A DNA stretch of 64,000 nucleotides from an uncultured Alphaproteobacteria bacterium (GTDB lineage: Bacteria; Pseudomonadota; Alphaproteobacteria; HIMB59; GCA-002718135). The translations under genes were made by a program, and so were the position numbers. Positions 33,844 to 53,107 of this stretch are shown here, piece after piece. The notes under the pieces are model-generated. The model was not told the DNA's origin. It saw only the letters and a program-made list of their open reading frames with translations, and searched no databases. Positions within the stretch are counted from its first letter, which is position 1. Each line of letters starts with the position of its first letter. The stretch is from NCBI GenBank assembly GCA_902576125.1, contig CACGUF010000005.1:18657-82656 (forward strand), read 5' to 3'.

Positions 33844-34799
33844 TAATAATGAACCCTCTTCTCAATGATATATCTTTGGAAAAAAGTTAATATCAATATA
33901 AAACCAATAAAGACAACAGTAATAGCTGCTCCTATACTCGTTAAGTTTTGTTGGATAGCTTTTTCAAAAATTGCATACATCATAACGTAGGTAGTTTTAG
34001 ATGGGCCGCCCTTAGTAAGTATTTCAATTGTATCAAAAACTTGAAATGTTCTAATTGTTGTAATTGTTACTACAAACAAAGTTGTAGGTCCAAGCATTGG
34101 CCAAGTTACAAGTTTAAATTGTTCCCAGGTTGATTTAGCTCCATCCATTTCTGCTGCGTGATATAATTCTCGAGGTATACCTGTAAGGCCTGCTAAATAT
34201 AAAACCATATTAAAACCAAATGCTTGCCAAATTCCTATAAAACATATTGTCCAAATTGCTGTATTTTTTTGCTTCAGCCAATAAGGAAAATCCATATTAT
34301 TTGCACATGCCACATGATACCAGCTTTGTTGTGAGTCAACCCATGGTAACCAATGAAAACCAAGAATAAATTCTCTTACACCTCCGCAACCATTAGCTAA
34401 AAAACTATTTACTATACCAAGTGTTGGGTGAAGAGTGAATTCCCATGCAATTGCCATAGCAAGAAGAGTTGCCATAACAGGAAGAAAGAAAATTGTTTTA
34501 TAAATATCGGCTCCAAACCTTAGTGAATTTAATAGCATAGCAGCACACAAACCAAGTACAACGGAGATAGGAACTACAACAATTACATAAGTTGCTGTAG
34601 CCCAAATCATTTTTACATATGTTTTTCTTGAAAACATTTTTTCATAATTTTCAAGTCCGATCCATTCGAGAGATTTATTACCTAAATTATAATCAGTAAA
34701 AGAAATTCCACCTGCAAGAAATAAAGGAAAAATTAATATAATAATCATTAATATTATTGCAGGTGCAATAAACCAAATATGTGCTTTGGAATTATGCAT
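33843..34799 (-). CDS. CUT1 (UgpA-like) ABC permease
   Basis: GLENY, FFLP, IPRELYHAAEMDGA, TWPML, GGP. Confidence 0.9.
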   Translation of the reverse strand: MHNSKAHIWFIAPAIILMIIILIFPLFLAGGISFTDYNLGNKSLEWIGLENYEKMFSRKTYVKMIWATATYVIVVVPISVVLGLCAAMLLNSLRFGADIYKTIFFLPVMATLLAMAIAWEFTLHPTLGIVNSFLANGCGGVREFILGFHWLPWVDSQQSWYHVACANNMDFPYWLKQKNTAIWTICFIGIWQAFGFNMVLYLAGLTGIPRELYHAAEMDGAKSTWEQFKLVTWPMLGPTTLFVVTITTIRTFQVFDTIEILTKGGPSKTTYVMMYAIFEKAIQQNLTSIGAAITVVFIGFILILTFFQRYIIEKRVHY

Positions 34800-36088: not shown

Positions 36089-37330
36089 GTGTCTGAAAAT
36101 TTAGTAATTAATAACAGAGAATATCCAAGCACATTTTCTAAGACAGCTATAGTTATTTGTCTTGATGGAAGCCAAAAAGAGTATCTCGAAGAGGCATCAA
36201 AACTAAATCTTACACCTAATATTGATGCATTAATTTCTAATGGACAGAGTTTACTTGTTCATAGCGCTATCCCAAGTTTTACAAATCCAAATAATATATC
36301 AATTGTAACAGGGCAACCTAGCTCTGTTCACGGCATATGTGGTAATTTCTTTTACACTCCTGAAACAGGGGAAGAAGTTATGATGAATGATCCAAAATAT
36401 ATGCGTGCGCCAACAATATTTGAAAAATTTTATAATTCTGGATCAAAGATTGCTCTTGTTACTGCAAAAGATAAACTCAGAACTCTTTTGGGCAATGGTT
36501 TAGGATTTGATGATAATCGAGCAATATGTTTTTCGGCGGAAAAATCTGATCAGGCAACAAAAGAACATAATGGTATTGATAATGTTAATGAATGGTTAGG
36601 AATGCCTGTACCGGAAGTATACTCTCAGGGTCTTTCCGAATTTGTCATGGCAGCTGGAGTAAAATTACTTGAGGAATTTAAACCAAAAATAATGTACTTA
36701 TCTACGACAGATTATATTCAACATAAGTATGCACCAGGAAATGAAGTGGCTAATAAGTTTTATGCTATGTTTGATAAATATATTGGCCTTTTAAATAAGG
36801 GCGATGTATCAATAATTATTACGGCTGATCATGGTATGAAACCTAAATCAAAAGACGATGGTTCACCCAATGCAATTTTTTTACAAGACTATCTGGATAA
36901 AAAATTTGAACCAAATGTAGCAAAAGTTATTTTACCAATAACTGATCCTTACGTTGTTCATCATGGATCATTAGGTTCATTTGCAACAATTTATCTTGAA
37001 GATAAAACTAAAGTTAATGACGTTATAGAATCAATTAAAGAAATTAAGGATATAGAGGTAGTTTTAACTAAAGACGAAGGTTGCAATACATACAATCTAC
37101 CACCTGATCGCATGGGTGATATAATATGTATGTCCTCAGAATTTATGACCATTGGATCATCGGAAGATAAACATAATCTTTCCGGATTAAATGAACCTTT
37201 ACGTTCTCACGGTGGTTTGCATGAGCGAGAGGTGCCTTTTATATCAAATCTAAAAATTCAAAATTACAATAATGAAAAACAGCTATATAATTATGATGCA
37301 TTCTACTATGCAATTAATGGAGCTCTGTAA
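36089..37330 (+). CDS. phnA: phosphonoacetate hydrolase
   Basis: [53 protein letters not shown]; GTG start. Confidence 0.95.
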
Positions 37331-38769
37331 TGGAAAAGAAAATGATTAATGAAGCTATGCGAATTGCTGGCAAAAAAGTAACTTTTGAAAAAACAATTGA
37401 TGTTGAGTATCCTTTTACGGGTGAAGTCATTGGTACGGTTCCTGCAGGAAATGCTGAACATGCAAAACAAGCTCTTGAAATTGCAGCAAACTATCAACCT
37501 AAGTTGACAAGATATGAAAGACAAAAGATTCTTCAAACAGCCGCAGAGGTACTTGTAAAAAGAAAAGAAGAAATCTCTGATATCATTACTTTAGAGCTTG
37601 GGATTTCAAAACAAGACTCTCTATATGAAGTCGGTAGGGCATTTGATGTTTTTTCTTTAACTGCACAACTTTGTATTCATGATGACGGAGAAATTTTTTC
37701 TTGTGATTTAACTCCTCATGGAAAAGCGAGAAAAATATTTACAATAAGAGAACCATTAACAGCAATTTCTGCAATTACTCCTTTTAATCATCCGTTAAAC
37801 ATGGTGGCGCACAAAATTGCTCCTTCTATTGCAACGAATAATTGTACTGTTTGTAAACAGACAGAGTTAACTCCATTAACAGCAATGGTTCTTGCGGATG
37901 TTTTATATGAAGCTGGTCTACCTCCTGAAATGTTTTCTGTTGTTACAGGATGGCCACAAGATATTGGTTCAGAAATGATAAAGAATTCAAATATTGACCT
38001 TATTACTTTTACAGGAAGTGTTGGAGTTGGAAAACTAATTGCTGAACAAGCAGGATATAAAAGAACCGTTCTTGAACTTGGTGGAAATGATCCTCTAATT
38101 GTTTTAAATGATTTAGATTCAGATGATTTAAAGAAAGCTGTTGAATTAGCAGTAACTGGGGCAACAAAAAATTCAGGACAACGCTGTACAGCAGTTAAAA
38201 GAATACTTGTACAAGAAAAAATTGCTGATCAGTTTGTTGAACTGGCTTTGGAAAGAGCTAAAAAAATTAAGTTCGGAGACCCAATGAGCATGGAAACTGA
38301 TTTAGGTACCGTTGTTAATGCTCAAGCAGCTGAACTGTTTGATAAAAGAGTTTCAATGGCAGAAGGAGATGGTGCGAAAATTTTATATCATCCTGGAAGA
38401 AAAGATGCGTTATTGCCTCCTATAGTAATTGATAATGTTGATCCTAAAAGTGAATTAGTATTGGAAGAAACTTTTGGACCTGTCATTCCAATTATACGCG
38501 TTCCAAATGATGATGAATCTGTCATCAAGATCTCAAATTCAACTGCTTTTGGATTATCTTCCGGTGTGTGTACCAATAATTTTATGAGAGCAAAAAAATA
38601 TATTCAAAACTTAAATGTTGGAACTGTCAATATTTGGGAAGTACCTGGATATAGAATTGAAATGTCTCCTTTTGGGGGAATTAAAGACTCGGGACTGGGA
38701 TACAAAGAGGGTGTTATTGAGGCGATGAAGAGTTTTACTAATGTGAAGACTTTTTCACTTCCTTGGTAA
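37330..38769 (+). CDS. phnY: phosphonoacetaldehyde dehydrogenase (NAD-dependent)
   Basis: ALDH motifs [28 protein letters not shown]; [10 protein letters not shown]; coupled to phnA. Confidence 0.92.
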
Positions 38770-38911: not shown

Positions 38912-40165
38912 ATGAGAAAATTAATTACAGGATTAGCAGCTATATTAGCTTTTGGCTTCTATGGTTCTGTTAATTCAGCTAAATCTATTGAAATAGAAGT
39001 AGCTTATCCTTACTCAGGTTTATTTGATGTTACTTATCAAGCTATTATGCCAGAGTTTGAAAAAGCACATCCAGATATTCAAGTAAAGTTTAGAGCAACT
39101 TACGAAAACTATGAAGATGCAACTGCTACAATTTTAAGAGAAGCAACTTCTGGTAATCTACCTGATGTTACAATGCAGGGTCTTAACAGACAAGCTCCTC
39201 TAGTAGATAAAGGTATTGCAAAATCTTTAGAACCATTCATTGCAAAAGAAGCTGATTTTGAAAAAGACGGTTACCATTCTGCAATGTTAAGTCTTTCAAC
39301 ATTTGGTGGAGAGGTTTATGGTTTACCATTCTCTGTATCAACTCCTGTTGGATACTATAACATGGATCTCTTAGCTGCAGCAGGCATAGATAGCATTCCA
39401 ACTAACTGGGATGAAGTTATTGATGCTTGTGGAAAATTAGAAGCAGCTGGAAGTGGAACTTTATATTTCGGTTGGAACATTACAGGTAACTGGTTCCACC
39501 AAGCATTAATGCATACTCAAAATGTTAAAATTGTTGAAGATGGAAAAGTTAACTTAGGCGGAGATGCTGGTTTAGCAACTTTACAACAAATGCATGATAT
39601 TATGAGCGGATGTAATATGCCTAACTATTCAATTGCTGATGGTCAAGCGGCATTTAATGCAGGTACTATTGGCATGATGTTCTGGTCAACTTCAAGCTTA
39701 GGTTCAGTAAATGCTGCAAAAGCAGATTTCGTTCTTAAGACGGCTCCATTTCCTGGAATGGCAGGCGTAAACAATGGAACTCCAGCAAGATTACCAGCAG
39801 GTGGAAATGCAGCAATGTTAACTTCTACTTCTGATGATCCAGCAAGAGTTGATGCGGCTTGGACATTCTTGAAGTTTATTACTTCTGGTATTGGCGCAGC
39901 ATTAGTTGCGGAGACAACTGGTTATGTTCCACCAAACAAAGCAGCTAACGATTTATTAGGTGATTTCTATAGTGCAAATCCAAATAAACTTACTGCGGTT
40001 GAACAGCTTCCACTCTTAGCAGATTGGTTCGCATATCCTGGTGAAAACGGACTAGCAATTACTCAAGTAATCTATGATTACACTGAGGAAATTGCTACTG
40101 GTAGTGCTGATGATATGGGTGATCTTCAAGAAGAGATGATGGAAGAAATAAACGATCTTCTGTAA
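38912..40165 (+). CDS. CUT1 (UgpB-like) ABC substrate-binding protein
   Basis: Signal peptide; YGLPFSVSTPVGYYN, PAGGNA, AAWTFLKF, TGYVP; strong GGGAGG RBS; partner of 32950-35925. Confidence 0.88.
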   Translation: MRKLITGLAAILAFGFYGSVNSAKSIEIEVAYPYSGLFDVTYQAIMPEFEKAHPDIQVKFRATYENYEDATATILREATSGNLPDVTMQGLNRQAPLVDKGIAKSLEPFIAKEADFEKDGYHSAMLSLSTFGGEVYGLPFSVSTPVGYYNMDLLAAAGIDSIPTNWDEVIDACGKLEAAGSGTLYFGWNITGNWFHQALMHTQNVKIVEDGKVNLGGDAGLATLQQMHDIMSGCNMPNYSIADGQAAFNAGTIGMMFWSTSSLGSVNAAKADFVLKTAPFPGMAGVNNGTPARLPAGGNAAMLTSTSDDPARVDAAWTFLKFITSGIGAALVAETTGYVPPNKAANDLLGDFYSANPNKLTAVEQLPLLADWFAYPGENGLAITQVIYDYTEEIATGSADDMGDLQEEMMEEINDLL

Positions 40166-40197
40166 ACAAAGATCATTTAATTATTAACTTTTTAATG

Positions 40198-40225
40198 CAG
40201 CGGCTTTATAAAAGCCGCTGTTTTT
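40198..40225 (+). terminator. terminator or mRNA-stabilising hairpin after the SBP gene
   Basis: CAGCGGCTTT-ATA-AAAGCCGCTG followed by TTTTT. Confidence 0.85.
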
Positions 40226-40252
40226 ATTTAAAAAAAAACTGATGGAGGAAAA

Positions 40253-41332
40253 ATGCCACTTATAACAACTACAATAGGCGCTTATCCAAAACCTAAAAAT
40301 ACCCCAATTAATGATTGGTTTTTAGGCACTAAATCTGAAGAAGAAAAAAAAGCTGCTAAAGGATTATTGGCAAACTGGTCACCTGGTGCTTACGAAAAAG
40401 CAATAGAGAAAGCTGGTGATAATGTAGAAAATTTATTTTTAGATGCAATTAAAGAAGTTATACTTGATCAAGTCAGTGCTGGCATTGATGTTCCAACAGA
40501 TGGTGAAGTAAGAAGAGAAAGTTATGTTTTTCACCAATGTCGTTTTTTAAATAATATAAGCTTTGAAGAAGTAACTCATAAGTCAGTAAGACAAGGAGCC
40601 TTTGAAGCAAGTGTTCCAACAATAATTGGTCCAGTTTCAAGCAAAGAGATACGTATGCCATTAGATTGGAAAAGTGCTCAACAATTTACTAAAAATCCGG
40701 TAAAGATTACCCTTCCTGGTCCAATGACGATAACTGACTCAATTGCAAACAACTACTATGATGATCTTAAAAAACTGGGCTTTGATTTAGCATTAGCTCT
40801 AAACGAAGAAATAAAAGCACTAGTTGATGCTGGTTGTAAATATATTCAAATTGATGAACCAGTTTTTGCAAGAAAACCAGAAGAAGCTAATACATATGGC
40901 ATGGAGAACTTAGAGAGAATGATGCATGGAATTCCCAAAGATGTGCAAAGAGTTTGTCATATTTGTTGTGGTTATCCAAACTGTCTTGATTCTGAAGGAT
41001 ATAAAAAAGCAGACTTAGATGCATATGATAGAATTGCTACTTTAGTTGATGACTCTACTATTGATGAAGTATCTTTAGAGGACTCTCACAGACATAATGA
41101 TTTAAATCTTCTAGAAAAATTTAAAAAAACAAAAGTTATTTTTGGATTTATTGACATTGCTAAAAGTAGAATGGAGTCTGTAGAGGAAGTGAGAACTAGA
41201 ATGAAAGACTCTTTAGAACATATTGATGAGCATCGTTTAATTGCTGCCCCAGATTGTGGTTTAGGATTCTTTACAAGAGAGCAAGCAATTGAAAAAATGA
41301 CAATCTTATCAAAAGCAGCAAAATCAATTTAA
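40253..41332 (+). CDS. cobalamin-independent methionine synthase II family protein (MetE catalytic core only)
   Basis: IGAYPKP, TDGE.RR, LPGPMT, IQIDEP, HIC and PDCG Zn ligands; 359 aa, lacks the N-terminal folate-binding barrel. Confidence 0.85.
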   Translation: MPLITTTIGAYPKPKNTPINDWFLGTKSEEEKKAAKGLLANWSPGAYEKAIEKAGDNVENLFLDAIKEVILDQVSAGIDVPTDGEVRRESYVFHQCRFLNNISFEEVTHKSVRQGAFEASVPTIIGPVSSKEIRMPLDWKSAQQFTKNPVKITLPGPMTITDSIANNYYDDLKKLGFDLALALNEEIKALVDAGCKYIQIDEPVFARKPEEANTYGMENLERMMHGIPKDVQRVCHICCGYPNCLDSEGYKKADLDAYDRIATLVDDSTIDEVSLEDSHRHNDLNLLEKFKKTKVIFGFIDIAKSRMESVEEVRTRMKDSLEHIDEHRLIAAPDCGLGFFTREQAIEKMTILSKAAKSI

Positions 41333-41336
41333 AATA

Positions 41337-42449
41337 ATGTGGAACTACTATAATCCTGTAGAAATCATCTTTGGAGAAAATAAATTTAAAGAAGTACATT
41401 CAGCACTTAAAAATAAATCCTATATAATTATTACTCACCCTGAAGAAATTTTTAAAAAATATAGTGATGAGTTGAATTCTTCTTCTAATCCACCACTGTC
41501 TATTATGACGGATGTTCAACCTAATCCGGATTATAAAGATATTTTAGAACTCCAAAAAAAATTTTCTCATATTAAAGAAAATGTTGAATATATTTTAGCA
41601 ATTGGCGGAGGTTCTGTAACAGATACAGCAAAAGCTATTGCTGCTTTTAAAGATAAACAAGAATACTTAACAGATTTTGTAAGAAATAAAAAAAGTCCAC
41701 AAGTTGAAAACCCTATAAAAATCATTGCTGTTCCCACAACATCTGGAACATCCAGTGAGCTTACTTGTTGGGCTACAATCTGGGATAAAGAAAAAAATAA
41801 CAAACTCTCTTTAGCTCATAAAACACTTTATGCAGAAAAAACAATTATCGATCCATCTATTATGATTGATAAACCTCTTGGTCTCACAATATCTACTGGC
41901 CTTGATGCTTTATCTCACTCTATGGAAAGTATTTGGAATGTAAATGCTAACCCAGTTTCAGCTTCACATGCGATTCAAGCTTCGAAGTTAGTTTTAGATA
42001 ATTTACCTTTGCTAGCCAAAGATTTAAATAATATTGAGTTACGTTCTAACATTGCACTTGCATGCGTTCATGCAGGTTTGGCTTTTTCAAATACAAAAAC
42101 AGCCATTGCTCATAATCTCTCTTACCCTATTACACTTAATTATGGAATCCAACATGGTATTGCTTGTTCATTTACACTCCCTATTATTACAAGAAGCATG
42201 ATTGGTATTGATCAAGTTGCTGAGGAAAGATTACAATTAATTTTCAATAATAACTTAGAAGCTGGGTCATCAAAATTGAGTGAAATTATGCGCTCTTTAA
42301 ATGTTCCTTTAAATTTAAATGAAATAAAAGTTCCTGTTCAAGAATGGAATAATATAGTAGATGATGCTTTTTTAGGAGAACGTGGTAAAAACTTTATTGG
42401 TAATAAAGAATCTTTTACTAAATCTGCTCAACAAATGGGTTTATATTAA
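41337..42449 (+). CDS. iron-containing alcohol dehydrogenase, phosphonate-associated (hydroxyethylphosphonate dehydrogenase/PhpC-like)
   Basis: GGGS..DTAK, PTTSGTSSE, DALSH..ES.W, AH..SY, HGIAC; context inside phn cluster. Confidence 0.8.
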   Translation: MWNYYNPVEIIFGENKFKEVHSALKNKSYIIITHPEEIFKKYSDELNSSSNPPLSIMTDVQPNPDYKDILELQKKFSHIKENVEYILAIGGGSVTDTAKAIAAFKDKQEYLTDFVRNKKSPQVENPIKIIAVPTTSGTSSELTCWATIWDKEKNNKLSLAHKTLYAEKTIIDPSIMIDKPLGLTISTGLDALSHSMESIWNVNANPVSASHAIQASKLVLDNLPLLAKDLNNIELRSNIALACVHAGLAFSNTKTAIAHNLSYPITLNYGIQHGIACSFTLPIITRSMIGIDQVAEERLQLIFNNNLEAGSSKLSEIMRSLNVPLNLNEIKVPVQEWNNIVDDAFLGERGKNFIGNKESFTKSAQQMGLY

Positions 42450-42451
42450 AC

Positions 42452-43558
42452 ATGAAAAAAAATTTTAGATTTTATGACAATAGACAAAAATATTTGTTAT
42501 TTGTTACAACAACAAATGAAAAAAATCAAATTGCTGATGCTATTCGTCCTCATGTAAATAGAATCAAACCACAAAAACCTGGAATAAAATTATTTGATGC
42601 GGGTATGGGTGATGGATCATTATTAATGAATGTTATGCGTCAATGTCATTCTGCAAACCCTACCATTCCATTATTGGTTGCAACAAAGGAAATTAGTATA
42701 GAAGATGTAAGATTAGGTTTAGAAAAATTACCAGACAGATTTGTCGAACATAAAAATACTGTTTTTGTAATTTCAAATTTACATTATGCAGAAGCTGCAA
42801 ATTTAAAATCTAAAAATGAAAAGAAACAACAAAAAATTAATTGGAATGTTATAAAACTTAAAGGAGATACTTCACTTGAGTTTGCACAGCAGTTAAGAAA
42901 ACAAAATGAATTCTTAGAAAAAAAATGGAACATAGAAATTAATGAAAAAACAGGAAACCCAACTTATAAAGAACCTTCCGTTATGGTTATTTATAGAGAA
43001 GACCAAGAATTCAATGTAAATGAATTAATTCCGATAAAAAATAATTCTGAAAATAAATTTGATCTCATAATTGCATCCCAGCCTTATAGATCACGAATTT
43101 CAGCTGAAAAAAAGGTAAAATATGTTATTGAGCCTATGATTAGGGCTTTAAAATCAAAGGGAAAGTTATTAACCATTCATGCTGCTGGAAAAGATCCAGC
43201 AAATGACATTGTTAAAAAATTATGGCCAAAAGAAAAACCCTTTCCTTCTCTTGGTAACAGCATAATTTCATATTTAAAGAAAAATTTAGATAAAGATTTA
43301 CTAAATAAATTATTTTTTGGTGAAAAAAGAAACATTAAATGTAGACTAAGAGCTTTGCCTAATGAAATCAGTGGAAGTATTGCAACATCATTAATTTTTT
43401 CAGCATGGAATGCCTCAATATATGTTAATCAAATGGATGACGACAAAGTCATGAAAGTTGAGAAAACAAAAAATTATGAAAAAATTGTTCAAAATGTTGT
43501 TGCAAAGAATAAAGGTCTTTATTTTAATAATGAAATATTTGTAATTGGAAAAAAATAA
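42452..43558 (+). CDS. uncharacterised SAM-dependent methyltransferase-like protein
   Basis: LFDAGMGDG (motif I-like) and FDLIIASQ (motif IV-like). Confidence 0.55.
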   Translation: MKKNFRFYDNRQKYLLFVTTTNEKNQIADAIRPHVNRIKPQKPGIKLFDAGMGDGSLLMNVMRQCHSANPTIPLLVATKEISIEDVRLGLEKLPDRFVEHKNTVFVISNLHYAEAANLKSKNEKKQQKINWNVIKLKGDTSLEFAQQLRKQNEFLEKKWNIEINEKTGNPTYKEPSVMVIYREDQEFNVNELIPIKNNSENKFDLIIASQPYRSRISAEKKVKYVIEPMIRALKSKGKLLTIHAAGKDPANDIVKKLWPKEKPFPSLGNSIISYLKKNLDKDLLNKLFFGEKRNIKCRLRALPNEISGSIATSLIFSAWNASIYVNQMDDDKVMKVEKTKNYEKIVQNVVAKNKGLYFNNEIFVIGKK

Positions 43559-43560
43559 AT

Positions 43561-44358
43561 TTACTCACTCTCAAACCAGTTTACTTCTGATTTTAAAAAA
43601 TCTTCACTATGAACAATTATAGAGTCGTCTGATAATAAAATAACATTATAATTAGGATCTGTATTTGCAGTTCCAAGTCTGTATTTATCAATAAAGTTAG
43701 AAACTAGGGGCTGCCAAGTACTTCGAGGAGAAGAAAAATTTATACCTAAATATTGCCCAGAGCTTGTAATATGTTGATGACCAAAAAAAATATGCTCAAT
43801 AGAATTTTTAAATTGTAATAAAATTTTTTTAAACTCTTCTCTTTGTACAAGGCCAATAGAGTCACTTTTTTTATGACCTAACGCCAAGGGATTATGATGC
43901 ATAAATAAAAAAATTTTATTTTGTTTTTCTTTTTGTAATATATCTATTAACCAGTGTTGTCTTTTTTCACATAAGTAACCTTCATCTTTACCTGCTAAAT
44001 TTGTATCTAGGAAAATAAATGTTTTATCATTATCTTTTTCTACATACTGAACAAAACCATTTTTATCAGTTTTGATATCTGGAAAATTTTTTTTGAAATT
44101 TTCTCGGTTATCATGATTACCTAAAATTAATTTAGGTTTTAGATGTTTAGGTAAATTTATCTCTACTAATATATCTTTAAAAATTTGGTAAGAGTTGTTC
44201 TGTCCAAAATGTGTTATATCTCCTGTAATTATAAAATGATCAGCATTTATGTGATTTTCTTTAATATGTTCTAATGCCAATTTAAATCTTTGTTTTGAAT
44301 CAATCCCATGTAGTAATTTAGGCTCAATATGCGGATCAGATAAATGTATAATTTTCAT
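43561..44358 (-). CDS. metallophosphoesterase, GpdQ/CpdA-like phosphodiesterase
   Basis: SDPH, TGD, LGNHD, MHH, FGHQH. Confidence 0.88.
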   Translation of the reverse strand: MKIIHLSDPHIEPKLLHGIDSKQRFKLALEHIKENHINADHFIITGDITHFGQNNSYQIFKDILVEINLPKHLKPKLILGNHDNRENFKKNFPDIKTDKNGFVQYVEKDNDKTFIFLDTNLAGKDEGYLCEKRQHWLIDILQKEKQNKIFLFMHHNPLALGHKKSDSIGLVQREEFKKILLQFKNSIEHIFFGHQHITSSGQYLGINFSSPRSTWQPLVSNFIDKYRLGTANTDPNYNVILLSDDSIIVHSEDFLKSEVNWFESE

Positions 44359-44467: not shown

Positions 44468-45100
44468 TTATAAAGTGGTTTTAAAATAAATATATTTTTT
44501 AAACTCTTTTTGTAAATCAATACTTACTCTAGCATGCACTTTTCCTTGTCTACCTTGAAAAGAGCTTTTTTCTTCAATTGGAAAAACTCCTTCATGCCAA
44601 ATATTTGGGTGTATATAAAGTCCCTGTGATCCATCAAAATAAAACGCCTTAAAATCACCAACTTGTACGTCATCTCCAGGTAAAGCTAATGGTGAAATAA
44701 AAGGGCTTTTAGTGGAGGGATAAAAGAGCTGTCCACCATCAGGGTGGTAATTCACATGCCAGATATATATATGGTCAGGTTTTTTATATTCTGTTGCTGG
44801 ATCACTCGTTGGTGGTAAAGCATGTCCTAGTATATATTTACCATCTACTTCGTAGTCACTATTGTTATGTTGAACAGCATTATTTTGTCCCCACAAAGTA
44901 CTACCTTCCCACCAAGTATCAAAAGATCCTTCCGTACTCCCTCCTTCATTTCCTGTTCCTTTATCAATCTCTCGCCAACCTTTTTTAGGCCACGTTACAA
45001 TTTCAATGTCACTATTTTCATAGGAGTCAATTAAGTATCCATATCCTTTAAGTGTTTCATTGGTCGCTTTAACTAGAAGAATTTCAACAGCATCACTCAT
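44468..45100 (-). CDS. ureidoglycolate lyase (AllA)-like cupin
   Basis: ATNETLKGYG, HPDGGQLFYP, GLYIHPNIWH pattern typical of the AllA fold; directly downstream of phnW. Confidence 0.65.
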   Translation of the reverse strand: MSDAVEILLVKATNETLKGYGYLIDSYENSDIEIVTWPKKGWREIDKGTGNEGGSTEGSFDTWWEGSTLWGQNNAVQHNNSDYEVDGKYILGHALPPTSDPATEYKKPDHIYIWHVNYHPDGGQLFYPSTKSPFISPLALPGDDVQVGDFKAFYFDGSQGLYIHPNIWHEGVFPIEEKSSFQGRQGKVHARVSIDLQKEFKKYIYFKTTL

Positions 45101-45106
45101 AGGAAA

Positions 45107-46210
45107 TTAATTTTTAACATTAATATTTAATTCACTTACTACTTCTTTAACAGCTGTGATTGTATCTGTCATATCTTGTTGATTTAAATTACCAATGCAT
45201 CCAATACGAAAAGTATCAGCCACGGTTAATTTTCCAGGATAGATTAAAAAATCTTTATCACTTAACGCATTATAAAATTGATGAAAATTAAAATTAGGAT
45301 CATTCGGTTGTTTGAATGTAATGATAATTGGTGCTTGCAGTTCATCAGGTAGTAATTGCTCAAACCCAATTTCTTTCATACCATCACAAATAATTTTACA
45401 ATTATTTTTATATCGTTCATGTCTTCCTGCAACACCACCTTCCTTTTCATGTTCAGCAATTGCTTGATTGAAAGCTGCCAAGACATGTGTTGGTGGGGTA
45501 AAACGCCATTGTTTATTTTTTTCCATTGCTGTCCATTGATCATACAAATCTAAACTTAAGGAATGACAATTTCCTTTTGCATTTTCAATTACTTGGTTCT
45601 TCATTAAAATAAATCCAACACCAGGCACACCCTCTAAGCACTTATTCGATGAAGCGGCAACAGCATCAAAAGTAACATTTTTACTGCTAAGTGGCAGGGC
45701 TCCAAAGGCACTCATAGCATCAATAAACAAGGATAAGTTTTTTTTCTCAACCAAGCTCGCAATATCCTCAATAGGATTAAGAATTCCTGATGTTGTCTCA
45801 CAATAAACAGCAAAAACATGTGTTAATTGTGAATTCGCATCAATGATATCTTCTAATTTTTTTATATCATGAGGCTCATGTTCAGCAACCTCATATTCAA
45901 TTGTGTTTCGACCTAAATAAGAGCACATTTTTTTCATTCGTTGTCCATATGCACCGTTAATTAAAATTAAAATATTTGCATCTTTTGGTGTCAGTGAACT
46001 TATCATGGACTCAACAGCAAAAGTTCCACTTCCCTGCATAGGGACACACTGATACTTTCCTTCTCCATCAATCAATTTAATTAAAGAGTCTCTGATGGAT
46101 TGATTTAAATCTATAAATTTTTGATCACGTGAACCCCAGTCATGAAGCATTGCCTCTTTTGTGCTCATAGAAGTTGTTAGTGGCCCAGGTGTTAATAATT
46201 TTTTATCCAC
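45107..46210 (-). CDS. phnW: 2-aminoethylphosphonate--pyruvate transaminase
   Basis: LLTPGPLTTS, DWGSRD, QGSGTFAVE, CETTSGILN, SSNKCLEGVPG, WRFTPPTH, IYPGKLT; GTG start. Confidence 0.96.
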   Translation of the reverse strand: MDKKLLTPGPLTTSMSTKEAMLHDWGSRDQKFIDLNQSIRDSLIKLIDGEGKYQCVPMQGSGTFAVESMISSLTPKDANILILINGAYGQRMKKMCSYLGRNTIEYEVAEHEPHDIKKLEDIIDANSQLTHVFAVYCETTSGILNPIEDIASLVEKKNLSLFIDAMSAFGALPLSSKNVTFDAVAASSNKCLEGVPGVGFILMKNQVIENAKGNCHSLSLDLYDQWTAMEKNKQWRFTPPTHVLAAFNQAIAEHEKEGGVAGRHERYKNNCKIICDGMKEIGFEQLLPDELQAPIIITFKQPNDPNFNFHQFYNALSDKDFLIYPGKLTVADTFRIGCIGNLNQQDMTDTITAVKEVVSELNINVKN

Positions 46211-46231
46211 AATGATAAAATAAAGTAATAT

Positions 46232-48220
46232 TTATTTGATTCCATATTTATTTTTAAGTTTATTACTTCCAGCTTTTATAATTCTGTCAGCAATTATAGA
46301 TATAAAAGCTACACACAAACCAGCAACTAAACCCCTTCCTATATCTGCTTTAGTAAGACCTATGTAAACTTCTTGACCAAGATCTCTAGTTCCTACCAAT
46401 GCAGTAATTACTAACATAGATAAGGCAAGCATTATAGTTTGGTTTATGCCTAATAAAATTTCTGGTAAAGCCAAAGGTAGTTTTATTTTAAATAATAATT
46501 GCCTTTGAGAACATCCACTAATTAATGCTGCTTCTACAATTTGACTATTAATATTTCTTACACCATGAGCAGTATATCTTACCGCAGGAGCCAGTGCATA
46601 AAGTATCACAGCAATCATTGCTGTAAAATCGCCAACACGAAAAAGCATTACAACCGGTATTAAGTATACAAAACTTGGCAAAGTTTGAAGGGTATCAATA
46701 AAGGCCGTTAAAATTTTATTTGCTCTGTCGTTTAAACCTGCCCATACTCCAAGTGGGATACCTATAATAGAAGCAATGATTACACTAGAACCACACAAAT
46801 AAAGCGTTATCATAGCTTTTTCCCAGAGACCTGTAGTAACTATAAAAATTGACATTAATAGGCATAATAATGCTAATTTTAATTTTCCAAAATACCATCC
46901 GATAATTGTAATAATAAAAATAAACCAAGGCCATGGGATCCCCAGAAAGAATTTTTTTATCGGCAGCATAAAAAAAGTTAACAAAGTTATTTTAAAACTC
47001 TCTAGATTATCAAAATAATTAATATTTATATATTTGACCAATTCCTCCCAGAATAATGAAGTATTAATCATTAACTCTTTTGGAAATAACTTAAAAAAAG
47101 TAAAAAAAGTACCCAGAATATAAATTCCAATTATATATAGAATTAATAAAATTATTTTTTTATATTTATTATAAAAAGTTTGCTGAGTTTTTTTTGAGAG
47201 AGTTGGTAAATTAGCAAAAGATTGACTTAGACGATCTAAAGCAATTGCTATAACAACAATTGCTATTCCTGATTCTATACCTCCGCCAATGTCTAATCTT
47301 CTTAGTGAGGCTAATACATCATAGCCCAATCCACCTGCACCAATCATAGAAGCTATGATAACCATATTAAGTGATAGCATAATCACTTGATTTACACCTA
47401 TAAGTAAAGTTGGTTTAGAGACTGGGATTAGCACCTTCCACATTAATTGTCTTTCTGTGCAACCAGACATGAGCCCACTCTCTTTTAATTGTGGATCAAT
47501 GTTGTTAAGTGCTAGAAGTGTAGTTCTAACCATTGGGGGCATTGCATATATTATTGTGGCAATTAATGCAGAAACTGGCCCAAAACCAAACATTACAAGT
47601 ATTGGAACTAAATAAGCAAAGACTGGAACTGTTTGCATGAGGTCTAATATTGGGGTTATAATTTTTTCTAAAATTTTTGACTTATAGGACAATATCCCTA
47701 ATAATATCCCTAGGACAACCCCAATTGGCACAGCAATAATGATTGAAGATAATGTAATCATTGAACTTTGCCATTGATCAAATACAGCCAAATAAACTAT
47801 TGATAGAACAACGAGTATTATTAAAAACTTATCTCTTGTATAAAGCGCAAGGGTAAAAAAAATACCAACAACTGAAATCCAACTTAGTGGTTCCATTATT
47901 TGGATTGCATCTTGACCTTGTCCTTTTAATATTCCTTTAGAAAATATAGCTAAAACTATATTGTAAGGCTGTTCTATAATCCAAGCAAAGAAACGAGTAA
48001 GATCATTAAAAGTAAATAACCAAAAATGTGCTTCGTTAATTAACCATTTAACAAATGTTGTAGTATAAATAGCAAAAGGAAATGAATAATGCTTTGGATA
48101 TTTTACTAACCATTTACTATCAAAGTAGTTTGCTATTTCTTTGCCATACCAATACAAAAGAAACGTTAAGAAAGTTAGAGAAATAAAAATAATTTTATTT
48201 GATATTTTTTTATTCTGCAT
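46232..48220 (-). CDS. ProW-type ABC permease with duplicated domain (quaternary-amine family)
   Basis: Two copies of QT.P.F.YL.P and G.NQ.IML.L.M.VI; 662 aa. Confidence 0.9.
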   Translation of the reverse strand: MQNKKISNKIIFISLTFLTFLLYWYGKEIANYFDSKWLVKYPKHYSFPFAIYTTTFVKWLINEAHFWLFTFNDLTRFFAWIIEQPYNIVLAIFSKGILKGQGQDAIQIMEPLSWISVVGIFFTLALYTRDKFLIILVVLSIVYLAVFDQWQSSMITLSSIIIAVPIGVVLGILLGILSYKSKILEKIITPILDLMQTVPVFAYLVPILVMFGFGPVSALIATIIYAMPPMVRTTLLALNNIDPQLKESGLMSGCTERQLMWKVLIPVSKPTLLIGVNQVIMLSLNMVIIASMIGAGGLGYDVLASLRRLDIGGGIESGIAIVVIAIALDRLSQSFANLPTLSKKTQQTFYNKYKKIILLILYIIGIYILGTFFTFFKLFPKELMINTSLFWEELVKYININYFDNLESFKITLLTFFMLPIKKFFLGIPWPWFIFIITIIGWYFGKLKLALLCLLMSIFIVTTGLWEKAMITLYLCGSSVIIASIIGIPLGVWAGLNDRANKILTAFIDTLQTLPSFVYLIPVVMLFRVGDFTAMIAVILYALAPAVRYTAHGVRNINSQIVEAALISGCSQRQLLFKIKLPLALPEILLGINQTIMLALSMLVITALVGTRDLGQEVYIGLTKADIGRGLVAGLCVAFISIIADRIIKAGSNKLKNKYGIK

Positions 48221-48230
48221 ATTTTAAATT

Positions 48231-48254
48231 TAAAAGGGGGATATAAATCCCCCT
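48231..48254 (-). terminator. hairpin after the betaine-type SBP gene
   Basis: AGGGGGAT-N4-ATCCCCCT stem with a T run on the minus strand, between SBP and permease. Confidence 0.7.
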
Positions 48255-48275
48255 AGAAAAATTAAGATTAAAGGA

Positions 48276-49223
48276 TTATTTTATCCACGTACCCCATCTA
48301 TCTTTATTGTTAGACATCCATTCAGCTACTACAGCCTCTACTGTATTACCATCAAGATCTACAGCAGCAACTAGATTGCCCATTTCATTACTATCAAGTG
48401 TAAAAGCTTCTACTGCATCGTAAGCACCTGGCCATTTGTCTTTAAGCATGCTTGAAGCTACTTTCCAAATAGGACCTCTTGGTTTACCACAATCATAAGC
48501 AGCATTTTTATTTATACCCCAAGACGGATCTGTATAACACTCAGTCGTGTATGGTGGAAATTCTACAAATTCTCCATCATATTTAGAAGGTGCCCAATGT
48601 GGAGCATATACCCAAAGCATTATAGGTGCTTTTCTTTGATATGCAGATTCTAATTCACCAAAAAGCGCTCCATCAGTTCCTGCATGAATTACTTCCCAAT
48701 CTAACCCAAGAGCTTCAACGCGCTCATCATCATATCCACCCCAAGTTACAGGACCACCTAGATATCTTCCTTTTGGAGATGTTTCTGGTGTAGAAAAAGC
48801 TTCTGCACAATCGTTAAGAGCTTCCCAATTTGGAAGTCCAGGACATTTGTCTTTCATGTAAGATGGATACCACCATTCCTCAATAGCATCCATTCCAGTA
48901 GTTCCTACATTAACTACTCTTCCATCAGCTGTATATTCGTCAATGGCATCACGACCAGTTGTTTCCCACATCTCCATTGCTACATGCAGATCCCCTGTTT
49001 GAAGGCCAGCAAATTGAGCAATATAATCGGCAGGAACTAGCTCAACATTGTATCCAGCTTCTTTAAGAACTTCAGCCATAATGTTAGTTGTGATTAATTG
49101 ACCAGTCCAGTCATGCAAAGTAAGCTTGATAGGATCTTTTGATTCCACCGCATAAATATTTTGTGCAAATAGAATAAAAATAAAGCTTAATAGAATATTA
49201 AATTTATTTTTAAGAATTTTCAT
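48276..49223 (-). CDS. glycine betaine/TMAO (TmoX-like) ABC substrate-binding protein
   Basis: DPI....HDW.GQ, EEWWYP...KDKCPGLPNWEALNDC, KGRYLGGPVTW, YDCG.P, KWP pattern similar to TmoX-family SBPs. Confidence 0.82.
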   Translation of the reverse strand: MKILKNKFNILLSFIFILFAQNIYAVESKDPIKLTLHDWTGQLITTNIMAEVLKEAGYNVELVPADYIAQFAGLQTGDLHVAMEMWETTGRDAIDEYTADGRVVNVGTTGMDAIEEWWYPSYMKDKCPGLPNWEALNDCAEAFSTPETSPKGRYLGGPVTWGGYDDERVEALGLDWEVIHAGTDGALFGELESAYQRKAPIMLWVYAPHWAPSKYDGEFVEFPPYTTECYTDPSWGINKNAAYDCGKPRGPIWKVASSMLKDKWPGAYDAVEAFTLDSNEMGNLVAAVDLDGNTVEAVVAEWMSNNKDRWGTWIK

Positions 49224-49348
49224 TTTACCTCCCAGTAATAAATTTTATTAAAACATTAAATAAAACTAATGAATAAAACTACTAAAAACGAACAATTATT
49301 CTTAAATTTTCTAATAATTATTAAGTTTATTAATAAATTTTACAATAT

Positions 49349-50359
49349 TTAATTATTAATAAATTTTGAGACCGTTTCTTTATTAAGTGAGCCAACTATA
49401 TTATTTGATCTATCAATAACTGAAACTGATCCTTCAGAGAGAACTTTTTCGAGAATTGAAAATATTTTTTCATCTTCATAAACTGTTGTGGAATTATTTG
49501 TTACTTTTTTATTATCCATTATACTTTTTACAGATAATAATCTCTCCCTTGGGAGGTCTTCAGTAAATTCTTTTACATAATCATCTGCAGGCTTCATAAT
49601 TAAATCTTCAGGACTTCCAATTTGTACTATTCTTCCTTCATTCATAATAATGATTCTATCTGCTAATTTAATTGCTTCATCAAAATCATGAGTTATAAAA
49701 ATAATAGTTTTTTTAAGTGAGTTTTGAATTTTTAAAAACTCATTTTGCATTTCTTTTCTTATTAACGGATCTAAAGCAGAAAATGGTTCATCTAAAAACC
49801 ATAACTCTGGTTTAACAGCCAGAGAGCGACCAATACCAACTCTTTGTTGTTGTCCTCCTGATAGTTCTTTTGGAAAATAGTTTTCTCTTCCTTGTAGTCC
49901 TACCAGTTCAATTATTTCTAAAGCAGATTTCTCTCTTTCTTTTTTACTAATGCCCTGTACCTCTAAAGGAAATGCTATATTTTCTATTACTGTTCTATGA
50001 GGAAAAAGAGCAAAGTGTTGGAACACCATACCCATCTTATGTCTTCTAATTTCTATTAATTCATTTTTTGTTAATTTTCCCATATCAATATTTTCAAAAA
50101 AAATTTCTCCAATTGTTGGATCAACTAATCTAGACATACATCTTACTAAAGTTGATTTTCCTGAACCACTTAGACCCATTATTACAAGAATCTCATTTTC
50201 ATAAACTTCTAATGAGGCATTTCTAATTGCTTGTATATAACCACTTGCTTCTATTGTTTTTTTATCAGGGTTATTATTATGAAGTTGTAAAAATTCTTTT
50301 GGCTTATCCCCATATAATTTCCAAACATTTTTACATACAAGTTTAGGTGACTTATTCAT
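49349..50359 (-). CDS. ProV-type ABC ATP-binding protein
   Basis: MGLSGSGKST, FQHFALFPH, LSGGQQQRVG, DEPFSALDPLIR. Confidence 0.92.
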   Translation of the reverse strand: MNKSPKLVCKNVWKLYGDKPKEFLQLHNNNPDKKTIEASGYIQAIRNASLEVYENEILVIMGLSGSGKSTLVRCMSRLVDPTIGEIFFENIDMGKLTKNELIEIRRHKMGMVFQHFALFPHRTVIENIAFPLEVQGISKKEREKSALEIIELVGLQGRENYFPKELSGGQQQRVGIGRSLAVKPELWFLDEPFSALDPLIRKEMQNEFLKIQNSLKKTIIFITHDFDEAIKLADRIIIMNEGRIVQIGSPEDLIMKPADDYVKEFTEDLPRERLLSVKSIMDNKKVTNNSTTVYEDEKIFSILEKVLSEGSVSVIDRSNNIVGSLNKETVSKFINN

Positions 50360-50361
50360 CT

Positions 50362-51126
50362 TTATCCTTTAGCGTACCATCCATTATCTACATACAAAGC
50401 TGTTCCATTAACAAAACTAGATTCATCAGAAGCTAAATATAACACAGCGGATGCAACTTCTTCTGGCTTACATATTCTTCCCTGTACAGAATGCAAATCA
50501 TTTTCATTCCAATTTTGCCCTTGCTCATCTAATTCCTTAATCTCTCTTAATCCATGATTTGTTTTAACAAAACCAGGACATATCGCATTACATCTAATTC
50601 CTTGATCTCTGTATTCAACAGCGATTGATCTAGCTAATTGTAAAACAGCACCTTTGGTCATGCAATATAATGACTCTAGGGCAAAACCTTTTTCCCCTCC
50701 TATTGATGAAGTAATAATAATATTTCCTCCTTTATTATTGAGCATTGAAGGAATCACTTCATTACAAACAAGAAATGCGGATCGAACATTTATATCCATT
50801 AAATAATCATAATCTTTTTCAGAAGACTCATGAAGAGGTTTAACTATGATAGTCCCAGCATGATTAAATAAAATATTAACTGTGCCAAATAAATCCATAA
50901 TTTGACTAATTGATTTTTTTACTTCACTAGATTTTGTTAAATCAGTATGAAAGAAAAATGCTTTTTCACTATTTGTATTAATTTTATTTACAGTTTTTTC
51001 ACCCTCAGATTTATTTATATCCATTATAGCAACTAGAGCACCTTCATTACAGAATAATTCTGCTGTAGCTTTGCCCATTCCAGAAGCGCCACCTGTAATA
51101 ATTACTTTCTTATTTTTTAATTTCAT
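50362..51126 (-). CDS. short-chain dehydrogenase/reductase
   Basis: TGGASGMG, NHAG, YCMTK, ICPG. Confidence 0.92.
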   Translation of the reverse strand: MKLKNKKVIITGGASGMGKATAELFCNEGALVAIMDINKSEGEKTVNKINTNSEKAFFFHTDLTKSSEVKKSISQIMDLFGTVNILFNHAGTIIVKPLHESSEKDYDYLMDINVRSAFLVCNEVIPSMLNNKGGNIIITSSIGGEKGFALESLYCMTKGAVLQLARSIAVEYRDQGIRCNAICPGFVKTNHGLREIKELDEQGQNWNENDLHSVQGRICKPEEVASAVLYLASDESSFVNGTALYVDNGWYAKG

Positions 51127-51190
51127 TTTATTATGTATGTTTAATAAGTATAATGCAAAATGGTCAATAAAAAACTATTATATAAAATTT

Positions 51191-51205
51191 TTATGTTAAA
51201 CATAA
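51191..51205. promoter_or_regulatory. palindromic candidate operator in the SDR/kinase divergent region
   Basis: TTATGTT-A-AACATAA perfect inverted repeat. Confidence 0.35.
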
Positions 51206-51248
51206 TTGTAAAATATATTTTAAAAAGTTAGAAGTTTAAAAGGTTTTT

Positions 51249-52172
51249 ATGGATACATATATTGATAAAGTTTTTTCAATTTTAAATAATATTAAGGGAT
51301 ATGAAAAAATTTCAAGAGAAAATAGTAACCTGAAGCGCCTTGGCGGAATGACTAATATTGTTCATTTAGTAGAAGCTGAAAATATTAATCTCATAGTTCG
51401 TATCCCTGGAAAAGGAACAGAAGATTATATTAATCGTACTTTTGAATATAATAATGCAATGGCGGCATGGCGGGCTGGTATATCAGCAGAGATTATATGG
51501 GCAGATGTTGAGAATGGAATAATGGTTTCAAAAGCAATTAATGGAATAGAAACTATGACTCCAAACCTTTTTACTTCAAGAGAAGGCTCACCAGCTAGAG
51601 CAGGTTTAGCTTTGGCAAAGCTTCATAATTCTGGAGAGACTTTTGATTTTCACTTCGATCTTTTTAATATGATTGATGATTACTTAAATATTCTATCTTC
51701 TAAAAATGCTGAATTACCGGAAGGATATCATGATATAGTAGAAGCAGCAAAACCAGTAAAAGAAGCACTGGTTGCTAATCCTATGCCATTAGCTCCTAGT
51801 CATTGTGATCCTCTTTGTGAAAATTTTTTAGATGATGGAAATAATATGTGGATTGTAGATTGGGAATACTCGGGAATGAATGATCCCATGTGGGATCTTG
51901 GAGATCTTTCTGTTGAAGCAGGCATGGATGAGAATCAAGAGAATGAAATGTTGATAGCATATTTTGGTAAAGATCCAACTGCAGCTCAAAAAGGAAGAGT
52001 TATAATTTATAAAGCAATGTGTGATTTACTCTGGACTTTATGGGGCTTGATTCAGCATGCAGATAAAAATCCAGCTGAAGATTTCTGGGCTTATTCAATA
52101 GAACGTTTTGAACGTTGTAAAAAATTGATGCAAAAATCTGAATTCGCTATTCATATAAATGCTATTAAATAA
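51249..52172 (+). CDS. choline/ethanolamine kinase (APH-superfamily phosphotransferase)
   Basis: LGGMTN, RIPGKGT, HCDPLCENF (Brenner-type motif), IVDWEYSGMND. Confidence 0.87.
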   Translation: MDTYIDKVFSILNNIKGYEKISRENSNLKRLGGMTNIVHLVEAENINLIVRIPGKGTEDYINRTFEYNNAMAAWRAGISAEIIWADVENGIMVSKAINGIETMTPNLFTSREGSPARAGLALAKLHNSGETFDFHFDLFNMIDDYLNILSSKNAELPEGYHDIVEAAKPVKEALVANPMPLAPSHCDPLCENFLDDGNNMWIVDWEYSGMNDPMWDLGDLSVEAGMDENQENEMLIAYFGKDPTAAQKGRVIIYKAMCDLLWTLWGLIQHADKNPAEDFWAYSIERFERCKKLMQKSEFAIHINAIK

Positions 52173-52178
52173 AATAAG

Positions 52179-52502
52179 CTAATCTTTTATTCTATCTACT
52201 CTTCCAATTGACGTTGCTAGTTTTGCAAGCTGTTGATCAATCCAATTAGGATTTCTATCATACATGCTTCCTAATAGAATAAAATATAGACTATGTAATA
52301 AGAATGAACAGGTTATATAAAACCATGTTATTCCTTCTGGAAAAGGGACAAAAAAAATAATTGGAAAAAAAATAATACTTTGAAAAAAAACTTTTACGGC
52401 AATCCCCGCTAATGAGTAATCAAGTGATTTAATAATTATATTCCATAAAGCATGTAAAAATGCTGCAAAAAAAATTAAAAAATATATTGATGCACTTGTC
52501 AT
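52179..52502 (-). pseudogene. truncated EamA/DMT paralog of 32084..32926 with unrelated C-terminal tail
   Basis: First ~82 aa align by eye with the N-terminus of 32084..32926 (AAFLHALWN, LLH..Y); similarity stops where GDLS should follow, then a 25-aa hydrophilic tail. Confidence 0.65.
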
Positions 52503-52546: not shown

Positions 52547-53107
52547 ATGAAAAACAATATCATTAATGAACTTTTGAATTTACTTAAGATAAAAGGTGCT
52601 GATATTCAATACGGGAATGAAGATGTTACCCAGTTAGAACACGCCCTTCAATGTGCTGAACTAGCTGAGCACAATAATAAATCAGACGCATTTATTACAG
52701 CTGCATTACTTCATGATATTGGTCATCTAATATATGAAGACAAAGATCCTATTCATGAGGGAAAAGATGGCGTGCATGAAGATTTAGGAGCTGATTATTT
52801 AGCAAAATATTTTGGTGAAGAAGTAACACTTCCTATTCGAGCACACGTTGCATCAAAGCGATATTTGGCGGCTGTAGAAGATGGGTACTATGATCAACTA
52901 TCTGAAGCATCAAAAGAGTCACTTAAAGTACAGGGTGGTATTTTCACAAAAGAAGAAGCAGAGGAGTTTATCAATAAACCTCAGATGAAAGAAGCCGTTG
53001 AAATGCGTCGTTATGATGATCAGGCAAAAATACTTAATAAAGAAACACCGTCTGTAGAGCATTTCAGAAAATACGTAGAAAATTCATTTCAAGCATCTGC
53101 AAACTAA
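52547..53107 (+). CDS. phnZ: HD-domain C-P cleaving diiron oxygenase (PhnZ/TmpB family)
   Basis: YG.E.VTQLEHALQ, AALLHDIGH, HEDLGA, HV..KRYL, LSEASKESL..QGG, RRYDD.AK. Confidence 0.88.
   Translation: MKNNIINELLNLLKIKGADIQYGNEDVTQLEHALQCAELAEHNNKSDAFITAALLHDIGHLIYEDKDPIHEGKDGVHEDLGADYLAKYFGEEVTLPIRAHVASKRYLAAVEDGYYDQLSEASKESLKVQGGIFTKEEAEEFINKPQMKEAVEMRRYDDQAKILNKETPSVEHFRKYVENSFQASAN

Follow-up and report, generated by a model that had tools for sequence, protein, structure and literature searches.

The stretch of DNA analysed here, the window, comprises 64,000 nucleotides (nt) of contig CACGUF010000005.1 from an uncultured alphaproteobacterium, whose genome (1.26 Mb, 72% complete) has Pelagibacterales single-cell genomes as its closest public relatives. 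The window is a phosphate-acquisition island with PHO4, PhoU-like, ppk, ppx and several phosphatase genes, in which the genes for an ABC importer of the TmoX/betaine family stand immediately upstream of phnW, the gene for 2-aminoethylphosphonate (AEP):pyruvate transaminase. We consider it fairly probable that the block at 46211-52172 (all coordinates are positions in the window, which has a G+C content of 31%) is an accessory cassette whose importer represents a distinct clade of this family and probably takes up choline or an N-methylated amino alcohol, and that its link to phnW stems from the site where the cassette landed. The block places a member of the TmoX importer family in front of phnW, and a phosphonate function for it is unlikely.

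In the model that we favour, the cassette would consist of a choline-kinase-like gene and, divergent from it, the genes for a short-chain dehydrogenase/reductase (SDR), ProV, the binding protein and a fused ProW. It would have been placed before phnW by chance or convenience, in the SAR11 phosphate island, within the slot that separates a PhnZ-like HD gene from the phnW-cupin-phosphoesterase unit. The importer most likely takes up a methylated ammonium compound other than trimethylamine N-oxide (TMAO), because the cation-pi cage and the pocket glutamate are kept but three TmoX pocket residues are changed. Since the partners of the clade elsewhere are choline-kinase-like genes and genes for folate-linked N-demethylases resembling dimethylglycine dehydrogenase (DMGDH), the ligand would probably be choline or an N-methylated amino alcohol, for example mono- or dimethylethanolamine, and the SAR11 SDR may, speculatively, oxidise that alcohol. 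For the clade as a whole, a methylated amino alcohol is the probable ligand. It would be compatible with this model if the clade imported methylated ethanolamines and SAR11 passed them via the SDR into the dimethylglycine, sarcosine and glycine pathway. That the importer and PhnW share a substrate is unlikely.

Gene content of the block

The minus-strand genes follow each other in the order SDR, ProV, OpuAC-type binding protein, fused double ProW, PhnW, cupin and metallophosphoesterase. With the divergent kinase gene and two intergenic elements, the features are:

51249..52172, plus strand: choline/ethanolamine-kinase-family protein, 307 amino acids (Pfam Choline_kinase/APH), divergent from the SDR gene
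50362..51126, minus strand: SDR-family oxidoreductase, first gene of the cassette transcription unit (Pfam adh_short_C2, 210 bits)
49349..50359, minus strand: ProV-type ABC ATPase (TIGR01186 proV, 339.6 bits; cut-off 326.6)
48276..49223, minus strand: OpuAC-family periplasmic binding protein, 315 amino acids (PF04069, 161 bits; match to 4XZ6)
48235..48254, minus strand: G+C-rich hairpin with T-run between the binding-protein and permease genes (terminator-like, 8 pairs, 5 of them G-C)
46232..48220, minus strand: fused double ProW-type permease, 662 amino acids (two BPD_transp_1 domains; choXWV_perm over residues 48-331, ProW over 416-651)
46211..46231, minus strand: 21-nt spacer that travels with the cassette, whose edge abuts the phnW start codon (comparison of L006 and L121)
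45107..46210, minus strand: PhnW, AEP:pyruvate transaminase, first gene of the phnW-cupin-phosphoesterase unit (equivalog models)
44468..45100, minus strand: ureidoglycolate-lyase-like cupin, 210 amino acids (PF04115 over residues 116-182)
43561..44358, minus strand: metallophosphoesterase, third gene of the phnW unit (PF00149)

A first-pass annotation, made from the sequence alone, had described this gene run and had placed the end of the permease gene 21 nt before phnW; the coordinates of the open reading frames (ORFs) bear out both. The remaining gaps measure 2 nt (SDR-ProV), 125 nt (ProV-binding protein), 55 nt (binding protein-permease) and 6 nt (phnW-cupin). Absent from that annotation were the kinase gene, the phnA and phnY genes and the gene for a PhnZ-like HD oxygenase, all of which lie in the window.

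PhnW scores above the cut-offs of three equivalog models (NF010006, 522.4 bits against 296; TIGR02326, 477.4 against 400.8; TIGR03301, 472.7 against 360.8). The kinase-family protein contains the motifs HCDPLCEN (residue 185) and DWEY (residue 204), which we take to be the Brenner and choline-kinase motifs. For the cupin, the PDB matches are ureidoglycolate hydrolases only and are confined to residues 113-181; PMC10590968 uses neither 'cupin' nor 'ureidoglycolate' in its text. The hairpin at 48235-48254 is conspicuous against the A+T-rich background of the window. We infer that it is likely an attenuator or a stabiliser that raises the output of binding protein.

The binding protein and its pocket

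The best solved relative of the binding protein is TmoX from Ruegeria pomeroyi (4XZ6; E 9.1e-68, 232 bits, residues 25-314), and the description 'TmoX-like' given in the first pass is correct. As far as the sequences tell, the protein is nevertheless a TmoX paralogue in a separate, highly conserved clade, here called W, and not the TmoX of its genome. The latter is encoded on contig C1, with canonical tmoX, tmoV, fused tmoW, tmm and tdm genes plus another choline-kinase-like gene; it is 33% identical to the window protein and matches 4XZ6 equally well (239 bits). To a roseobacter TmoX encoded beside tdm, the window protein is 38% identical.

The pocket of TmoX is formed by W55, W102, F106, E131, W177, F220 and W222 (pocket description in PMC8918994). 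The aligned positions in the window protein are W39, W86, G90, E115, W161, W204 and Y206, so that four of the seven residues are kept (W39, W86, E115 and W161) and three are changed (F106 to G90, F220 to W204 and W222 to Y206). Two further changes in the pocket region, N to H and F to W, are fixed in the W clade. The signature W-W-TTGR(D/E)-E-WW-W-GG(Y/F)-W-Y-H-W is invariant or nearly so among 57 orthologues, five of which have K, Q or G in place of R91. At the changed positions, the five sequences of the TmoX clade (three from genes next to tdm or tmm) carry F or M, F, W, N and F.

In a quick tree the TmoX clade (five sequences, support 100) excludes the window protein, and the W group lies on one side of a branch with a support of 69. 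A phylogeny with TmoX had been suggested in the first pass; the tree places the window protein outside the TmoX clade. The expectation of a betaine/TMAO-family importer with an aromatic cage also held, as the family matches and the cage tryptophans are kept. Each of five genomes from other lineages (four roseobacter or Stappia, one gammaproteobacterial) has a single W orthologue, 67-77% identical; paralogues at 34-41% identity occur in four of the five, one of them in a tmoXVW-tdm cluster, and the Stappia genome (G004) yielded no binding-protein paralogue at E <= 1e-20. The window protein shares with TmoX the OpuAC/cluster F-III fold; it differs in its pocket residues and its position outside the tmm/tdm-associated clade, and no linkage to tmm or tdm was found in the window, so that three of the four testable features are not those of TmoX. 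The TmoX family therefore appears to include a separate clade with 67-99% identity across the sampled orders and a fixed, different pocket, which 'tmoX' profile searches in ocean metagenomes could miscount as a TMAO importer. Papers on phospholipid breakdown and transcript markers treat TmoX only as a TMAO marker.

The tree also contains a third TmoX-family clade, from roseobacters (L098, L099 and L101; support 99), with V/S at positions 90/91 and T at 204. Two DMGDH-like genes lie near the binding-protein gene of L101.

The TmoXWV systems of R. pomeroyi (4XZ6) and Pelagibacter HTCC1062 (TmoX as covered in PMC8918994) resemble the window importer in their OpuAC/cluster F-III family, three-part build and fused double permease. 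They differ in gene order, which is ATPase, binding protein, permease in the window and binding protein, ATPase, permease in tmoXVW; the W clade is separate in the tree, and its only linkage to tmm/tdm is at locus L011. The window system might be a second importer of TMAO, or of TMAO and choline, redundant with TmoXWV and supplying methyl groups and nitrogen. TmoX is its closest solved relative, the glutamate forming the hydrogen bond to the oxygen of TMAO is kept, as are three of four cage tryptophans, and at L011 binding-protein and permease genes without an ATPase gene of their own directly follow tmoXVW; moreover, TmoX proteins, with a Kd for TMAO of 0.5-1.6 µM, also bind choline at micromolar Kd (binding data in PMC8918994). 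However, the three altered pocket residues are fixed across the 57 orthologues, the clade coexists with true TmoX in the same genomes, and tdm or tmm lies near only one of 80 orthologue loci. We regard TMAO import as quite unlikely.

Gene neighbourhoods of the W clade

We collected 80 orthologue loci, with binding proteins 67-99% identical to that of the window, from Pelagibacterales, Rhodobacterales, Hyphomicrobiales, Rhodospirillales and some Gammaproteobacteria. Neighbours were counted by BLAST of all ORFs at these loci, PhnW within 10 kb; at least 8 kb on both sides is available at 54 of the 80, and many loci without partners are short contigs. The counts are:

PhnW near the orthologue: 4/80 (L008, L009, L010 and L079)
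Choline-kinase family: 68/80
DMGDH-like protein with DAO-FAO_M-GCV_T domains: 60/80
DeoR regulator: 55/80
Window-type kinase, at least 50% identity (50-69%): 22/80
tdm: 1/80 (tdm/tmm; L011)

A HisN/IMPase-type phosphatase gene is found near the orthologue at ten loci. A window-type SDR (at least 35% identity) precedes the importer at five of the 80, all of them SAR11/MarineAlpha loci (L008-L012).

The same importer clade forms part of putative kinase-linked N-demethylation clusters in marine and soil Proteobacteria, which combine importer, choline-kinase-like, DMGDH-like and DeoR genes with or without a HisN-type phosphatase gene. Their binding proteins are 67-77% identical to that of the window, and the window-type kinase is shared at the 22 loci listed above. 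In contrast, the window lacks the DMGDH-like partner, the DeoR gene and the phosphatase gene of these clusters and has an SDR gene in first position. A precedent for choline demethylation primed by a kinase is MthK/MthB of Eubacterium limosum; that pathway (MthK/MthB/MthC/MthA) differs in being anaerobic and in using a cobalamin methyltransferase, not a flavoenzyme (PMC12155760). Our literature search, which did not extend to supplements, returned nothing on the W clade or on an aerobic kinase-plus-DMGDH route for methylated ethanolamines. The carnitine system cntTUVW of R. pomeroyi has four components; no locus tag in the experimental transporter data for this species (PMC10130141) could be mapped to the W clade, so no conclusion is drawn from them.

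The neighbourhoods also bear on the form in which the ligand would be imported. A phosphorylated amine (phosphocholine or a phosphoethanolamine derivative) taken up as a phosphorus source would fit a phosphate-scavenging island such as this one, with its PHO4, PhoU-like, ppk, ppx and phosphatase genes; an arginine (Arg91) borders the pocket, and the clusters of relatives contain the DeoR and HisN/IMPase-type phosphatase genes counted above. Against this, kinase partners at 68 of 80 loci argue for import of an unphosphorylated form, Arg91 is not invariant, and most orthologue loci lie outside phosphate islands, which makes import of a phosphorylated amine very unlikely.

Two arrangements link W-type or kinase genes to the TMAO genes. 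At L011:1131-12998 the order is tdm, tmm, tmoX, tmoV, tmoW, SDR, W-type binding protein and W-type permease, with no second ATPase gene, which suggests a shared ATPase or a tandem origin. On contig C1 of the window genome (G000; L004:15132-16007), a choline-kinase-family gene for 291 amino acids directly follows tdm in the canonical TMAO cluster; therefore, such kinases accompany both TmoX-family importers of this genome.

The variable slot between the HD gene and phnW

The basal layout of the island was derived from eight related loci around phnW (L117-L124). It consists of PhoU-like and PHO4 genes, a phosphatase gene that follows the HD gene, the phnW-cupin-phosphoesterase unit divergent from HD, an orphan ORF of 368 amino acids and, further on, phnY and phnA. 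The cupin gene follows phnW at all eight of these SAR11 loci, and the metallophosphoesterase gene follows the cupin at seven. Where HD and phnW are divergent neighbours, they lie 50-95 nt apart (L117, L119, L120 and L122).

The content of the HD-phnW slot varies. It is empty in L117, L118, L119, L120 and L122; in L121 it holds an EamA gene, phnS2T2U2 and a gene for a putative aminophosphonate oxidoreductase, and this set is rearranged in L123. The oxidoreductase gene adjoins phnW in L124, whose contig ends within phnU2, and L008 and L010 have the phnS2T2U2 module plus the cassette. PhnS2 of these relatives (L008) scores 510.9 bits against a cut-off of 392.75. In the window, two further features lie at the upper end of the slot:

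52179..52502, minus strand: chimeric remnant ORF, 107 amino acids, joining the 5' part of the EamA gene to the last ~80 nt of the oxidoreductase gene (alignment with L008; joint near 52257)
52547..53107, plus strand: PhnZ-like HD-domain phosphonate oxygenase, the other edge of the slot (TIGR03276, 206.4 bits; cut-off 214.6)

Judged by the alignment, no independent gene exists at 52179-52502; the ORF there is to be read as the scar of a ~5.2-kb deletion, relative to L008, that removed phnS2T2U2. No phnS2 was found elsewhere in the 72%-complete genome.

The lower edge of the cassette is defined by comparison as well. Both the 21-nt spacer and the final ~30 nt of the permease gene travel as part of the cassette, and L006, where the cassette sits at another site, retains ~18 nt of the spacer. 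Between the oxidoreductase stop codon and the phnW start codon of L121 (9634-9684), ~50 nt are homologous to the 3' end of the permease gene plus the spacer. This permease remnant before phnW indicates that the cassette was lost from that site; a 99%-identical copy lies elsewhere in the same genome (L007).

We also surveyed 116 genomes of the family to which the window genome belongs, counting binding proteins of at least 87% identity. The importer binding protein is present in eight and PhnW in 96. Among the eight importer-bearing genomes, phnW is adjacent in four (G000, G065, G062 and G009) and on another contig in three (G061, G067 and G113); in G109, which is 68% complete, phnW was not found. 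By all these comparisons the block is best described as a rare, movable accessory cassette in a hypervariable slot, inserted upstream of an independently conserved phnW unit.

Transcription of phnW

No terminator-like site was found between the permease gene and phnW (46232-46210). A scan for promoters was uninformative at 31% G+C, with 56 sigma-70-like sites against 53.1 expected from shuffles. Four marine RNA libraries contain contigs 90-100% identical to portions of the block, and one listed contig of 445 nt, from one of the four libraries, bridges the permease-phnW junction (45958-46399, 14 differences), with DNA carry-over possible. A distance of 21 nt separates the end of the cassette from the phnW start, and phnW is therefore probably expressed by read-through from the cassette in this genome. 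Such co-expression follows from where the cassette landed and does not imply a shared substrate. Of the apparent operon with phnW that had been proposed in the first pass, probable cotranscription in the window stands, given the common strand, the short gap, the missing terminator-like site and the bridging RNA contig; linkage conserved in the orthologues does not, as it is present at only four of 80 loci.

Does the importer serve phosphonate metabolism?

In the marine phosphorus cycle, the turnover of AEP by SAR11 is a major contribution, and a hitherto unrecognised importer of methylated phosphonates would, if real, matter for it; the evidence points elsewhere. The first-pass annotation had proposed an importer for N-methylated AEPs or trimethylated AEP (TMAEP) that works with PhnW. 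In this proposal the cassette would import these compounds or a related phosphonate head group, to be processed by the HD oxygenase and by PhnW, PhnY and PhnA. The genes for the latter two are present in the window:

36089..38769, plus strand: phnA (phosphonoacetate hydrolase; TIGR02335, 469.9 bits against 407.55) and phnY (phosphonoacetaldehyde dehydrogenase; TIGR03250, 785.6 against 635.65)

Together with PhnW they make up a complete PhnW-PhnY-PhnA route. The proposal can also draw on the common strand and 21-nt gap with likely read-through into phnW, on the phnS2T2U2 and aminophosphonate oxidoreductase genes that the slot holds elsewhere, on the deletion of phnS2T2U2 from the window with no phnS2 found in the rest of the 72%-complete genome, on the PhnZ/TmpB-like HD oxygenase gene 1.4 kb away and on the change of a pocket phenylalanine to glycine next to Arg91. 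In addition, the arrangement is kept in four species.

The distribution of the importer speaks against this proposal. PhnW is encoded near 4 of the 80 orthologue loci, no HD (TmpB/PhnZ-like) gene was found near any of the 77 loci other than L008-L010, and within the family the importer is present in 8 and PhnW in 96 of 116 genomes. In L006 and L007 the gene for a 99%-identical binding protein has Ldh_2, proline-racemase, creatinase-like and peptidase genes as neighbours and a different contig carries phnW, and in L011 the importer follows tmoXVW. The conserved partners are kinase and DMGDH-like genes, and the kinases have no obvious role for a phosphonate. The sole TmpA/BBOX-like dioxygenase of the genome lies under both curated cut-offs and is encoded on contig C3, beside a different betaine-type importer. 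We therefore judge phosphonate import by the cassette to be quite unlikely.

Comparison with known phosphonate systems gives a similar picture. PhnS2T2U2, PhnSTUV and AepXVW resemble the window system in that an ABC importer occupies the same slot upstream of phnW (L121, L123, L008 and L010). Unlike PhnS2 of the relatives, the window binding protein matches neither the PhnS nor the PhnS2 model, in agreement with the first-pass view that it is distinct from the known AEP importers. The characterised AepX comes from Stappia stellulata (AepX passage of the review PMC10574752). The W-clade orthologue of that species lies ~157 kb from the nearest phnW. With the TmpA/TmpB pathway for TMAEP of Leisingera caerulea, the window shares an HD oxygenase that matches the TmpB model (156 bits). 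This protein fits the PhnZ-type model better (206 bits), reaches none of the curated cut-offs and belongs to the basal island, not to the cassette; the window has no TmpA-like gene, the only one of BBOX/TmpA type in the genome being on C3.

In a further reading, deletion of the dedicated AEP importer would have left the cassette, in this SAR11 sub-lineage, as the sole importer and the transcriptional driver of the phnW unit, perhaps co-opted for N-methylated aminophosphonates or a choline-like phosphorus compound. We hold this to be unlikely; if true, the co-opted cassette would be the first phosphonate importer of the betaine family.

Several observations weigh against our preferred model, in which an accessory cassette for choline or an N-methylated amino alcohol landed before phnW. 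The partnership of kinase and demethylase comes from other lineages, and the ligand assignment comes from sequence. No demethylase of the DMGDH-like partner type was found in the window, and the 72%-complete genome has no orthologue of it, the best matches being 42% and 38% identical. Choline itself would be partly redundant as a substrate, since contig C3 already encodes BetA, an aldehyde dehydrogenase and a ProX-type importer. The slot otherwise holds a true AEP importer and may therefore collect genes that feed PhnW; the cassette is the only importer left in the phnW transcription unit after the phnS2T2U2 deletion, and the order SDR-ABC-phnW is kept in four species-level genomes. Replacement of F106 by glycine, next to an Arg91 that five of the 57 orthologues lack, could create space for an anion. 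Finally, the W group is only modestly supported as a single clade in the quick tree, and RNA contigs from libraries that may contain DNA cannot prove a single transcript.

Other features of the island and the genome

The C3 locus mentioned above (L005:3303-13416) comprises genes for a class II aldolase, a BADH-like aldehyde dehydrogenase, a BBOX/TmpA-like 2-oxoglutarate dioxygenase, EamA, a ProX-like binding protein, ProW, ProV, an SDR and BetA. Neither score of the dioxygenase, 313 bits on carnitine_bodg and 277 on TmpA, reaches the cut-off of its model, whereas BetA, at 712 bits, exceeds its cut-off of 605. Should the genome have an importer of TMAEP or gamma-butyrobetaine, the C3 locus would be the better candidate.

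Two assignments were considered and rejected. The SDR of the cassette is not PbfF, the racemase of 1-hydroxy-2-aminoethylphosphonate (HAEP), which is placed in pfam02826 and not in the SDR family (enzyme description in PMC12366243). The UgpB-like protein at 38912-40165 is not assigned to AepX, since the closest protein of Stappia stellulata is 27% identical to it and is encoded away from phnW.

The orphan ORF of 368 amino acids (42452-43558, plus strand) has no Pfam, NCBIfam or PDB sequence match. Its counterparts beside phnY-phnA are 68-90% identical in L117-L121 and L123; L122 and L124 lack it. Between phnY and this ORF lies a variable module (38912-42449, plus strand) that encodes the UgpB-like binding protein, a MetE-like protein (Meth_synt_2) and an iron-containing alcohol dehydrogenase, the last of which scores 363.7 bits on the phosphonate-associated model TIGR03405 ('PsrA'), under the cut-off of 423.7. 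The module is present in L118, L009 and L010; L120 and L121 have part of it, and L117, L119 and L122 lack it. Matching Ugp-like permease and ATPase genes are located at 32950-35925.

In the SAR11 phosphate island, importer modules are exchanged at a specific slot, bounded by the HD oxygenase gene on one side and phnW on the other, with the scars of deletion still visible.

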